Assembly: GCA_937888785.1 (NCBI GenBank) | Contig: CALASI010000172.1 | Span: 1-42,727, forward strand | Direction: 5' to 3' | Origin: an uncultured Sphingobacteriales bacterium | GTDB lineage: Bacteria > Bacteroidota > Bacteroidia > Chitinophagales > Chitinophagaceae | DNA: 42,727 nucleotides | Shown: piece after piece, positions 26,900-30,357 of the stretch | Numbering within the stretch: the stretch's first letter is position 1 | How the letters are laid out: the number at the start of each line of letters is the position of its first letter | Made by a program: the position numbers and the translations under genes | Notes under the pieces: model-generated | What the model saw: only the letters and a program-made list of their open reading frames with translations | What the model was told of the DNA's origin: nothing | The model's database searches: none

Positions 26900-28462
26900 C
26901 TATTCGTCTTCAATTCTCTTTCTCTTGCTTGCCAGGTATTTAGTATGAATAATTTCCTGCATTGGCTTGCCTTCCACTTTGCTTTCAAGCCAGGAAATAA
27001 TATCAAGATAAGCAAAGGAGCGGGTTTCAAAACGGTTACCTTCAAGGTGTTTCACTTTGTCTAAAAACTTTTCAAACTCCGGCTTTAGTTGCTTTCTTGT
27101 GAATTTAAAAGAGTTGCGGAAGAAGCGGAACATTTCCTGCTCGATCACTGTGAGATTTTTCATTCGGCTCATATAACGGAACACCGATCGTGTGAGATAA
27201 TCCATCAGTTCAAGATTGCCCAGTTCGTAATGCGCGAGTAAATGCACCAGGCGGGCATAACATTGCAAATCTGTTCGTAAACCTGATGAATCGTTAATGA
27301 TTTTTTGCAGGTAATCAATACTGCTGCTATAATCCCCTGAAAGAAAATAGAGCATCGCAATTTTGTAATTAATCACCATTACGCGGTGCCTGTCAAGAAA
27401 AATTGAATATTCCCCAAGCTTTTCCTCAATGTAAGGCACTTCGTTAAGCCCTTCTTTTGTAAGGCCGGTAATAATGTAGAAGTTGATCTTGGCGCCTGCA
27501 ATGTAAACAAAGGACTGAACGGTGAAGTTTTCATTATTCTGCACCCGCGGGCTTAAAGAAAATTCGTCAAACCTTTTTAAATCTTTACTTAGCTTTTCAT
27601 AGTTGCGTAAATCAAAATGGGCATTCAGCAAATTGTGAAAGCCGCGGATGTAGTGGCCTGTCTCCACGCGGATCATGTTGGGTTTGTGATCAAAAAGGTC
27701 AACCCATTTTTGCGCGTAGCGGTAGTATAATAAAAAATCCTGCCTGATAAATGCATACCACGTGTAGGCCTGGTAAAAATATAATCTCTCATAGAAACCT
27801 TCCTGCTGTGCAGAACCCGAGGGTAATGTTTGTCTGAAGAATTTTTTTACCTTTTCTTCCTCGTCTTCGTTACGGGCGTGGCCGTTAGCTATAAAAAATC
27901 CGTACATCTGCAAAGAAAGGTTAGACAGCCTGGTAACCATATCCAGCTTTGTATTAGCTTCATTCGCTTCTTCCGAAAGTTCATCAATACGAGCGGGAAA
28001 GGTATCAGTTACATTCAATGCTTCAATTCTTTTTTCAAGCGATAAAAGCAACGGTAAAAAGAAGTACTTCTGGTTCAGCTTTGCCATTTCCTTTGCGCGG
28101 TCAATGATGCGAAGGCTTTGATAAAACAACCCTTTTTTATATAAAATATGTGCTGAATCAAACAATTCATTCAATTGCAGGTCGAGGCTGTCGCCGCTTT
28201 TTAAAAGACGAAGGCTTGCCAATAACTCCTTATACAAATGTGATTTTAGATTGGAAAGCTGCGGTTTGGTAACATCTTTTAATTTTCTGAGAAGGACGGC
28301 TTCGTCATAGGGCTCCATCTTATCAATTGTGTCAAATAATTTAATGATTTTAAGGTCTTCGTTGCCGGAGCTTCTTTTTATATAAAGTTTAAAATTTCTT
28401 TTCTCAGACTTTTCAAGAGAATGAATTAACTGGTATAATATATCCGTAGGGCGATTTGACAT
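26900..28462 (-). CDS. Uncharacterised 520-aa helical-repeat (TPR-like) cytoplasmic protein
   Basis: Long ORF with no signal peptide and an amphipathic helical pattern; N-terminus LYQLIHSLEKSEKRNFKLY. TACATTTG promoter box at 28471-28478. Confidence 0.75.
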   Translation of the reverse strand: MSNRPTDILYQLIHSLEKSEKRNFKLYIKRSSGNEDLKIIKLFDTIDKMEPYDEAVLLRKLKDVTKPQLSNLKSHLYKELLASLRLLKSGDSLDLQLNELFDSAHILYKKGLFYQSLRIIDRAKEMAKLNQKYFFLPLLLSLEKRIEALNVTDTFPARIDELSEEANEANTKLDMVTRLSNLSLQMYGFFIANGHARNEDEEEKVKKFFRQTLPSGSAQQEGFYERLYFYQAYTWYAFIRQDFLLYYRYAQKWVDLFDHKPNMIRVETGHYIRGFHNLLNAHFDLRNYEKLSKDLKRFDEFSLSPRVQNNENFTVQSFVYIAGAKINFYIITGLTKEGLNEVPYIEEKLGEYSIFLDRHRVMVINYKIAMLYFLSGDYSSSIDYLQKIINDSSGLRTDLQCYARLVHLLAHYELGNLELMDYLTRSVFRYMSRMKNLTVIEQEMFRFFRNSFKFTRKQLKPEFEKFLDKVKHLEGNRFETRSFAYLDIISWLESKVEGKPMQEIIHTKYLASKRKRIEDE

Positions 28463-28621
28463 TTGAGGCGCAAATGTATACCCTAAAACTCACTTTCTGA
28501 AAATAAATATCAGCAAAAATAACGGTGGGCATCTTTCAGATAATTTCCTGAAACCCTTAACAACACTGCATTCTTACATTTTCTTAACAGTTTGGATGTT
28601 CATAAAACAAGCAATAATTGG

Positions 28622-28654
28622 TTTGGAATAGCCTGCTTTTAAAGGCTATCTTTG
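28622..28654 (+). promoter_or_regulatory. Bacteroidetes sigma-A promoter for sRNA copy 1
   Basis: TTTG (28622-28625), 21-nt spacer, TATCTTTG (28647-28654): the full -33/-7 consensus with no ORF downstream. Confidence 0.75.
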
Positions 28655-28659
28655 TGTTA

Positions 28660-28785
28660 TCAAATTCAGAAGTGATAGGAAAGTGAGAGAAAAGCTGTAG
28701 GCAGCACAAATAGTATCAAGTTTTTTTCATATGGCAAGCAATCGTTAGAGGTCAGTCCGTTTCTACGGAAGGACCTTTTTTGTTT
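28660..28785 (+). ncRNA. Putative sRNA, copy 1 (~125 nt)
   Basis: Promoter, purine-rich 5' part, conserved core, terminator AGGTC-ag-TCCGT-ttct-ACGGA-ag-GACCT-TTTTT. Ends are approximate. Confidence 0.7.
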
Positions 28786-28802
28786 TCAGGATGTTTGTAT
28801 CC
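28718..28802 (+). repeat. Direct repeat copy 1 (partner 29487-29571)
   Basis: 28718-28781 is identical to 29487-29550 (64 nt); 82 of 85 nt match over the extended repeat. Confidence 0.97.
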
Positions 28803-28855
28803 GGAATTTTTCCCAACGTATAATATTTTAAGGCCATGGCCTAAATAGCTCAAGC

Positions 28856-28887
28856 CGTTATATTGGTTATACGTTATATTGGTTATA
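28856..28887. repeat. Tandem duplication (CGTTATATTGGTTATA)x2
   Basis: Read directly from the sequence. Confidence 0.9.
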
Positions 28888-28902
28888 ATAAATGCGTTGC
28901 AT

Positions 28903-28927
28903 AAAAAAAAATCCCCTTGAGAGGGGA
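28903..28927 (-). terminator. Minus-strand intrinsic terminator
   Basis: Minus strand reads UCCCCU-CUCA-AGGGGA-U9. The U tail exists only on the minus strand. Confidence 0.8.
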
Positions 28928-29148
28928 ATAATTTGGTGAAAATTTGTAGTTATTTTTTAGAAATCGCACTTTTAATCTGGTTCGGCATTCATATAAGCAA
29001 GCAATCGTCAGAGGCAATCAAATTAGAGGTCTGTTAACGAGACGAATAACCTAACGCACTAACAATTCTTTTTAATTCGTCAATTTTTCAACTCAGCAAT
29101 CAAATCAGAGGTCTTGAACTTTGCAAACGCCCAAAAACTGCGATTGCG
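28903..29148 (-). ncRNA. Putative ~245-nt antisense/sponge RNA with three sites complementary to the flanking sRNAs
   Basis: Near-consensus -7 box TATTTTAG (29160-29153), minus-strand terminator, complementary sites at 28988-29014, 29014-29031 and 29095-29113. Confidence 0.55.
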
Positions 29149-29418
29149 GGGACTAAAATAGAGCTATTTTTTTATTTTCTTTAAATTTTGTTGATGTTTT
29201 TTTAACAAAGCGATAAAAACTATTTAAAAACGCGCTTTTTGTTAATATTTATGCAGAACCATGCGTTTTTATGCGTTTTTTAATGCAAAAACAACGTTTG
29301 GAAATAATCGCTTTTTTCACATTAAACTCAACTACAACAAGTATTTGAGGAAGCATGGAGTTCCTTAGCGGTCATTATTTTAACAATTTATTGTTATTAA
29401 AGCTGTTAGAAAACGATG

Positions 29419-29426
29419 TATATTTG
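29419..29426 (+). promoter_or_regulatory. -7 promoter box for sRNA copy 2
   Basis: TATATTTG, at nearly the same distance from the repeat core as in copy 1. Confidence 0.7.
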
Positions 29427-29431
29427 TATCA

Positions 29432-29555
29432 GATTACAAAGAAAGCGAAGGAAAAAGTGAAAAAGGTAGTCTAACTAAATAGAAATAAGTTTTTTTCATA
29501 TGGCAAGCAATCGTTAGAGGTCAGTCCGTTTCTACGGAAGGACCTTTTTTCTTTT
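29432..29555 (+). ncRNA. Putative sRNA, copy 2 (~125 nt)
   Basis: Same layout as copy 1, with a diverged 5' half and an identical core and terminator. Ends are approximate. Confidence 0.7.
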
Positions 29556-29571
29556 CAGCCTGTTTGTATCC
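29487..29571 (+). repeat. Direct repeat copy 2
   Basis: See copy 1; offset 769 bp. Confidence 0.97.
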
Positions 29572-29576
29572 AACTT

Positions 29577-29974
29577 TTACTTTTTAATCCTAAAACTATA
29601 TTTGCCTGATCCAAGTTGCAGTATTGTGTAATTCTCTTCATTACTTAAAGGCGCTTCTAAGGCGGTTAACGGTTTACCGGATTCGGTAATTTTACTTGCA
29701 TTGGCAGAAGGTAAGAATACCGTGGCTTTTGTATTGGCGGGTATCTTTACATCCAAAATAATGTTATTGCCTTCAACTTTCCAGTCACTGCTAACCGTTC
29801 CATAATAGGTTTTAAGTGATGCGGACGCATAGGTAAAACCCTCGCCAATTTGCGGTTTTATTTTAATGTGCTTATATCCCGGGCCATCTTCGTAAGTATC
29901 AATTCCTACCATTTGTCGGTACATCCAATTGCCGATGGCGCCGTAGGCATAATGATTAAGTGAGTTCATACCGG
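29577..29974 (-). pseudogene. Orphan C-terminal fragment of a GH78 alpha-L-rhamnosidase
   Basis: GMNSLNHYAYGAIGNWMY...PGYKHIKIKP...LDVKIPANTKATVFLP...LGSGKYSF is the GH78 C-terminus. The rest of the gene is absent. Confidence 0.85.
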
Positions 29975-30065
29975 AAAAATCGTAAACATCAAGGCTGAAC
30001 CTAAAACCAAAGTACTTGAACTTGCCAAAAAATTAAAAATTCCGCACTAAATGGGACAAGTTGGG
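29973..30065 (+). mobile_element. Probable IS right-end remnant (IS1634/IS4-like)
   Basis: Short frame GKIVNIKAEPKTKVLELAKKLKIPH* followed directly by TGGGACAAGTTGGG, which resembles an IS1634-type terminus. Family call is from recollection. Confidence 0.4.
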
Positions 30066-30357
30066 AGAACAGTGTTACTGAACGCTTATTTATTTTACAG
30101 TCTCAATGAAGTGCGCCAGAGGTGCCAGGACTACAATTATGAATGGTCGCGTAAATCGTTAGGCTACTTATCACCCGTCAACTACTTACAAAAATGGGCG
30201 AAAGAAAATTTTGATACCAGTAGTAACACAGGGTTATCCACACCCGCAAGCGAAACATTAAAACAAATTGAAGCGAAGCGGGTCGTGGATAACCCGCTTA
30301 ACAAAAACAACACAAATCCTCTAATTTTGAACTGACCGAGTTATAAGTACGCTTACA
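30066..30357 (+). mobile_element. IS3-family 3' remnant
   Basis: LLNAYLFYSLNEVRQ...DYNYEWSRKSLGYLSP is a degenerate integrase-core C-terminus (YN..RPH.SLG..SP). It ends ...GTACGCTTACA at 30357, consistent with the IS3 terminal CA. Confidence 0.75.

Follow-up and report, generated by a model that had tools for sequence, protein, structure and literature searches.

A multicopy small-RNA-like element of the Chitinophagaceae with predicted SusC targets and a candidate minus-strand decoy in one genus

Features of the locus

The window, by which we mean the whole stretch of 42,727 nt that was analysed (contig CALASI010000172.1, assembly GCA_937888785.1), comes from an uncultured member of the Chitinophagaceae whose genus we call Niabella because the best named relatives of its gene X are Niabella. 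In the gap beside gene X, an earlier note had described two units on the plus strand and one on the minus strand between them, each with a promoter-like box and a terminator of matching orientation. We confirmed this arrangement in the sequence, and the five motif coordinates given with it matched exactly. The features are as follows.

26900..28462, minus strand: gene X, encoding a 520-aa, all-helical TPR-type protein, a distant relative of BT2802/RusR (neighbour counts, NF058569 profile, predicted structure)
28471..28478, minus strand: TACATTTG, a consensus -7 box immediately before the start codon of gene X (sequence)
28594..28607, plus strand: place of the upstream site that is conserved in the family (TTTGRCATNATNAAA-like, 39 nt ahead of the -7 box), where only the right half fits (promoter comparison)
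28622..28654, plus strand: promoter-like -33 (TTTG) and -7 (TATCTTTG) boxes of sRNA copy 1 with a 21-nt spacer (sequence; same boxes before most relatives' copies)
28660..28781, plus strand: predicted sRNA copy 1 (~122 nt), with a purine-rich 5' part, a seed at 28722-28748 (anti-start-codon U-run-CAUA followed by GGCAAGCAAUCGUUAG) and a terminator at 28749-28781 (sequence, conservation, SusC complementarity)
28903..28927, minus strand: intrinsic terminator-like hairpin with a U9 tail (sequence, relatives)
28903..29148, minus strand: predicted decoy RNA (~245 nt), its ends inferred from box and terminator
28988..29031, minus strand: sites 1 and 2, an overlapping tandem (sequence, predicted pairing, tandem pattern in relatives)
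29095..29113, minus strand: site 3, bulged (sequence, predicted pairing)
29153..29160, minus strand: promoter-like box TATTTTAG, a non-consensus TAnnTTAG variant of the Bacteroidota -7 box, kept in relatives
29419..29426, plus strand: -7 box TATATTTG of sRNA copy 2 (sequence)
29432..29550, plus strand: predicted sRNA copy 2 (~119 nt), core at 29495-29522, same seed and terminator as copy 1

Repeat comparison within the gap showed that the plus units form a 95-nt direct repeat (94% identity, spacing 769) with an invariant 28-nt core and a common terminator, each unit ending in a stem followed by U6; the 5' part and upstream region of copy 2 differ from those of copy 1. Both -7 boxes (28647-28654 and 29419-29426) agree with the Bacteroidota consensus, TAnnTTTG, which was the most enriched -7 variant before genes in this genome (339 near vs 111 far). 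In the middle unit, the core recurs as three bulged copies, accompanied by a terminator that faces left and by a promoter-like box on the minus strand. Its hairpin (28927-28912) has a U9 tail on the minus strand only, as the note had read it, and the minus box is present at 29160-29153, although as a non-consensus variant; the sites differ from the core by the G>A and T>C changes that had been listed but also by insertions of 1-2 A. The pattern GCAATC-N1-4-TYAGAGG occurred six times in the 3.66-Mb genome, with five of the occurrences inside the gap, which argues that it is not there by chance.

Two further observations concern the surroundings. A perfect 16-nt tandem duplication (window 28856-28887) lies between copy 1 and the minus terminator and was seen in none of the relatives. 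At 29577-30335, a 130-aa C-terminal fragment of an alpha-L-rhamnosidase adjoins a weak integrase-core remnant (rve_3, E value = 0.026); a longer rhamnosidase-like frame occupies the equivalent position in G008 (locus L005), so the gene looks as though it was cut by an insertion sequence.

The plus element and its predicted SusC targets

The core was present in all 24 same-genus genomes compared (2-8 matches per genome) and in 85 of 120 genomes drawn across the family, and in 0 of 16 genomes of other families. An 18-mer of the core, with up to two mismatches, was found in 9/13 family genomes and in 12/137 others, with no exact match among the 12; the exact 21-mer was found in at least 123 stretches, and those listed were named as Chitinophagaceae genera. 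These counts lend comparative support to the paralogous sRNA family proposed in the note. Only the 3' module is common to copies across relatives, and the 5' parts vary. Of 225 copies, 135 had C-G as the inner pair of the terminator, 86 had U-A and 4 had U-G, and a second covariation count gave double changes in 9 of 27; this covariation supports an RNA on the plus strand. The core contains only a 5-codon frame, which we did not treat as coding because two of the 123 loci (L034, L099) have no ATG there, and a type I toxin-antitoxin system was rejected on the same grounds. Rfam 15 gave no match at gathering score in the window (best E value in the gap, 1.4), and neither Rfam nor the literature searched held an sRNA family for the Chitinophagaceae; the accessible parts of that literature, mostly non-subscription papers, gave no account of this family or sequence, and the main supplement of the FopS paper (PMC11697453) may show homologues outside the Bacteroidaceae. 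Within the literature and Rfam searched, the core is an undescribed multicopy small-RNA-like element.

The first bases of the seed, a U-run followed by CAUA, are complementary to UAUGAAAA. We compared the real seed with 200 versions in which the first part was fixed and the second part shuffled, at SusC start regions picked by a fixed, heuristic rule. In genomes carrying the element, the real seed stood out from the shuffles: z = -2.1 and 4/200 in G000 (32 of 34 genes usable), z = -3.2 and 0/200 in G155 (30 of 56 listed genes) and z = -3.5 and 0/200 in G007 (30 of 56 genes). There was no SusC-start signal in five genomes without the seed pattern, namely G223 (30 genes), G067 (18), G489 (10), G485 (10) and G497 (18), with z from -0.35 to +1.3, nor in G034 and G082 (z = +0.3 and +0.4), for which the genes supplied were mostly non-SusC TonB genes. 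The seed complement was thus enriched at SusC start codons in 3/3 element-carrying and 0/7 element-free genomes, which are related and not independent, and the reverse complement of the core gave no signal at SusC starts (z = -0.16). Across all genes of the genome, the seed did no better than 22 shuffled seeds (27 genes vs 33.5 +/- 13.5), and ranking targets genome-wide by seed gave no coherent list. The word AACGATT before starts (36 vs 14.8; rank 5 of 420 permutations) was dropped, as it did not exceed AT-rich control words before ATGARA.

The agreement between SusC complementarity and element presence in these 10 genomes points to base pairing with mRNA, and the 3/3 vs 0/7 split suggests that the core probably represses SusC translation, as FopS does in Bacteroides. 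It is therefore quite likely that the plus units are sibling sRNAs predicted to repress SusC translation. Their predicted targets are SusC mRNAs elsewhere, so the circuit is not self-contained, as the note had called it. The repeated word could instead be bound by a protein, such as an RRM protein of the RbpB type, with the RNAs titrating the protein and any antisense RNA masking the site: the word has two parts joined by a linker of variable length, an RNA may contain as many as three copies of it, the genome encodes two RRM proteins, and FopS binds RbpB (PMC11697453). We regard this explanation as improbable, since complementarity that follows the element across 10 genomes argues for base pairing.

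In abundance, only three loci exceeded the SusC cut-off in G034 and G082 (element-free), and dozens did so in G000, G007 and G155 (element present); the link is loose, because G223 and G067 lack the element yet have many SusC loci.

In the predicted fold of the sRNA, the second half of the seed is 62% unpaired and the U-run is mostly paired. The purine-rich 5' part of each copy (window 28685-28730) is predicted to pair with the U-run, so that the half of the seed directed at start codons would be masked until, perhaps, processing or a chaperone frees it. Several copies of the core have unusual settings. A divergent paralogue with a changed seed and its own terminator (G000:C110:4088-4022, minus strand) lies just after a small repeat-rich gene, and similar 3'-end copies with a normal seed occur at L034, L072 and L109, which suggests 3' UTR-derived members. 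At ~600 on a 95-kb viral contig (L207), a core copy is followed by a terminator-like hairpin and may be a phage-borne sibling or host DNA. In G093, a core copy (L179) lies directly downstream of a tRNA-like sequence.

The middle unit, its strand and its origin

The middle unit was found in 24 of the 25 genus genomes read, 29 units in total; G020 had none in the stretch read. The compact tandem pattern occurred in 27/35 genus genomes and 0/297 other genomes of the family. The unit is genus-specific: the plus-minus-plus layout, whose conservation across the Chitinophagaceae the note had proposed to check, is kept within one genus and limited to it, and there the minus-oriented unit with complementary sites has comparative support. 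The first tandem is 83-93% identical between clades, vs about 50% for the flanks. One Niabella clade (L004, L006, L007, L008, L010) has two middle units, a two-site unit with no clear terminator and a short one-site unit with a terminator.

The minus box, as RCTAAnnTA, was found in 29/29 units, 27-85 nt to the right of the tandem and with five NN pairs; its chance per region is 3-7% (nine representatives). Before genes, TAnnTTAG was mildly enriched (52 near, 27 far) relative to the control TAnnTCAG (25 near, 25 far), but TAnnTTAA also had more occurrences near than far (109 near, 80 far). The box carries an A never found at that position in 51 plus promoters, and it scored -1.2 to 8.3 bits on the matrix built from them (training mean, 12.3). 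A minus terminator of -7 kcal/mol or lower lay on the left in 19/29 units, with no clear one in the other 10. With a minus box in every unit and a minus terminator in 19, a minus-strand decoy is the best reading of the middle unit, and it is a likely one, given SusC-repressing siblings.

In prediction, all three complementary sites named by the note pair with the sRNA, but only site 1 is long, with a free energy of -42.1 kcal/mol, against -24.4 and -25.1 kcal/mol for sites 2 and 3; it pairs over ~26 bp and resembles a SusC start region. An extra distant site also occurs in G008, G003, G011 and G006. Cofolding of the full-length RNAs gave a gain of -20.7, vs -9.9 +/- 3.2 in 100 shuffles, with the outer terminator stem opened, in line with the proposed invasion of the sRNA terminator; the fold of the minus RNA itself was unremarkable (z = -1.2). 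In run X1, which is RNA by guess only, one unstranded 190-nt contig (depth 3; 2 changes and 1 gap) aligned at 28955-29143, wholly within the span of the predicted minus RNA. Among the pieces listed over 20 kb, no other was both long and close, and the plus units were uncovered. This contig is a weak hint only, because the run was found using this region and its contigs carry no strand.

The note had offered a tracr-like partner beside a sponge, that is, an RNA maturing guide RNAs for a protein effector. The predicted ~26-bp duplex and the RNase III encoded in the genome would suit such a partner. The gap holds no repeat-spacer array, though, every copy has its own terminator, and the partner is absent from most genera; the recurrent neighbours, judged from clusters, are gene X and unrelated genes, with no Cas- or TnpB-like gene among them. 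This idea was rejected as very improbable. It is also improbable that the minus RNA acts mainly in cis, by interference with copy 1 or read-through to gene X, with pairing secondary. The unit converges on copy 1, the 10 units with no clear terminator would allow such a role, and in G013 and G022 the unit points at gene X; against this, the sites are conserved far above the flanks, 19/29 units terminate before copy 1, and a -7 box of its own lies close to gene X.

Outside the genus, 64 of 125 plus units hold the same split tandem in sense at their 5' end, mostly 20-33 nt after the plus -7 box. The tandem goes with linkage to gene X (53/66 X-linked vs 10/57 unlinked units, several of the unlinked having short flanks). 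This tie could mean that a transcription factor, protein X for instance, binds the sites as DNA operators and that no RNA-RNA pairing takes place. Operators are very improbable, as the sites vary by insertions of 1-4 nt, a separate, position-fixed upstream site exists, and the core is complementary to SusC leaders and directly adjoins a terminator that covaries.

The sense tandems also raise the question of whether the middle unit is itself read in sense, as the orphaned 5' domain of an ancestral sRNA that carries extra seeds and is no sponge. The tandem and its lead-in follow a plus -7 box in the other genera, and the sense tandems there pair with SusC starts (mean z = -3.15 in the first 25 tested). 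Within Niabella, G003 and G011 have TAAATTTG 14 nt before the tandem, where the window has TTTG-20nt-CACTTTTA, and a strand test by folding was mixed, the hairpin being better in plus in some lineages. Other evidence goes against the sense reading. A consensus plus box precedes the sites in 2/29 units and a relaxed one in 6 more, with none in 21/29, and a plus terminator lies on the right in 1/29, whereas the minus box is present in all; G013 and G022, which have no upstream plus promoter or sRNA, keep the left-facing terminator. Read in sense, 8 of 19 site variants lose SusC pairing (10/19 keep z below -2.4), and the lineages of those 8 keep antisense pairing of -26 to -35 kcal/mol. On balance we consider the sense reading unlikely, although it has more in its favour than the other alternatives.

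The substitutions had been taken in the note as selection for RNA pairing through G:U wobble. Niabella sites do lean this way, with 12 G>A/T>C changes, 0 A>G/C>T changes and 2 transversions (20, 7 and 19 with wider windows), but the sense tandems of other genera lean likewise (56, 13 opposite and 44 transversions), so the bias does not fix the strand. The lean differs between the two sets (Fisher test, P value = 0.011, on counts that are not independent), and we take it as modest support for the antisense reading, not as proof of strand.

Homology between the middle unit and the sense domain in the plus units of other genera is probable. We found no general minus promoter behind the sense tandems (mean best score 0.6 vs 0.0 shuffled), and a loose pattern in five other genera gave no separate multi-site unit above background. 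The consensus minus -7 box, CAAAnnTA, lies directly behind 14 of the 64 sense tandems. In a tree of protein X (FastTree, 58 fragments up to 200 aa, midpoint-rooted), Niabella and the nine placeable CAAAnnTA loci fell outside a group of 22 tandem loci that have no such box (support 0.75, rising to 0.99 for a subset of 18). Because of the shortness and midpoint rooting of this tree, we offer the following order of events tentatively, as a hypothesis: a tandem duplication of the seed may have given extra sense seeds, an opposite-strand promoter may then have arisen, and the domain may have become detached in Niabella as a multi-site decoy for the SusC-repressing sRNA family. If so, the sister lineages with CAAAnnTA behind a sense tandem would represent the intermediate stage.

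Known systems, proposed mechanism and promoter regulation

The FopS sRNAs repress SusC mRNAs in Bacteroides thetaiotaomicron, and the antagonist reported for them is a protein, RbpB, which binds FopS (PMC11697453); the main text of that paper does not use the word "sponge." FopS and, by prediction, the plus units are multicopy Bacteroidota sRNAs with a single-stranded seed before an intrinsic terminator, a U-run-CAUA word directed against start codons and SusC mRNA targets (predicted here), and the 5' end of FopS-10/GibS in the oligo table has the same 9-nt word as our seed. Beyond these nine bases the seeds differ; the seed is 5' in FopS and internal here, and the plus-unit copies, unlike FopS, cluster beside a RusR-like gene. 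Membership in FopS/GibS was rejected, as the R1 seed is not carried and only the 9-nt word is common; the GibS model scored 18.8 bits vs 115, and RF04182 matched in 0/5 genomes.

The note recognised no described family, which holds for Rfam, but sponges of sibling sRNAs are a kind already known. QrrX of Vibrio cholerae pairs with the target-binding seed of Qrr1-4 and promotes their decay (PMC9732341), and CrfA of Caulobacter inactivates the siblings SisA-D through a shared anti-initiation seed in a carbon-supply context (PMC12559287). The middle unit shares with these sponges, on the minus strand, a conserved complementarity to the siblings' target-binding seed. As far as the accessible texts describe them, QrrX depends on Hfq and RNase E, acts in quorum sensing, has its own LysR activator and lacks repeated sites, and CrfA has one described site and is Hfq dependent; the decoy predicted here would have two to three sites, each homologous to the seed, and would be encoded among the siblings themselves, in a phylum that is described as having no classical RNA chaperones. 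CJnc180/CJnc190 of Campylobacter jejuni (PMC8687705) is likewise a locally encoded sRNA antagonist, with RNase III involved. That pair is overlapping and antisense, with one sRNA, whereas here the partner is non-overlapping and has imperfect repeated sites. The accessible parts of the literature searched held neither a multi-site sponge derived from a regulator's own seed nor a sponge RNA in Bacteroidota, the word being absent from a 2026 review as well.

Our joint reading, to which we assign a probability of somewhat under 0.6, is that sibling sRNAs predicted to repress SusC are bound and inactivated by a minus-strand decoy. The conserved core, covarying terminator and promoter-like boxes would yield sibling plus RNAs, whose seed, judging by the comparative statistics, would pair with SusC mRNAs over the start codon and the bases that precede it. 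Protein X, the RusR-like product of the divergent gene, may activate the adjacent copy, and other copies may answer other inputs. From the layout, a separate, weaker promoter would produce the ~245-nt minus RNA with two to three target-mimic sites; pairing is predicted to hide the seed and open the outer terminator stem, and the site-1 duplex could be an RNase III substrate. Induction of the decoy would then quickly release SusC translation.

In soil, water and sludge, much of the degradation of polysaccharides is due to members of the Chitinophagaceae. If SusC is repressed throughout this family by an sRNA whose seed differs from that of FopS, then FopS-type control of glycan uptake extends beyond gut Bacteroides. 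The decoy, if real, would add a sponge to a phylum that lacks Hfq and would offer a traceable route for the origin of a sponge, by a duplicated seed read backwards.

Gene X was the left, divergent neighbour of the core in 71 loci (some duplicates). Its product matched NF058569, the BT2802/RusR family, over its full length (E value = 2e-39, 136 bits, below the cut-off of 550). The model is a TPR-type superhelix (pLDDT 83) with weak fold matches to LGN, Rap and MalT domain III; Pfam held no family for it, and an Atlas search returned only hypothetical/TPR clusters. RusR regulates a carbohydrate system positively, and a ribose locus is not fully activated without it (10.1101/574913); protein X resembles it distantly, with a score far under that cut-off, and its gene lies opposite an sRNA promoter instead of a ribose locus. 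We infer that protein X is a candidate activator of the divergent sRNA copy, and the sRNA promoter may serve as a read-out for the poorly understood RusR-like regulators. Of 160 promoters, 71 had the upstream site at a distance of exactly 39 nt from the -7 box; that of window copy 1 is a partial fit, below the matrix cut-off. When the genome was scanned with this matrix, no clear regulon emerged, and the copy in the window was itself missed. In a second class of promoters (15/160, e.g., L014, L018, L019, L046 and L116), a TTAACATTAA-like word precedes the -7 box by 28-29 nt, which points to another regulator. At L201 (G000:C151), a paralogue of X is divergent from a 2-isopropylmalate-synthase-like gene, and X-family proteins may regulate several metabolic promoters.
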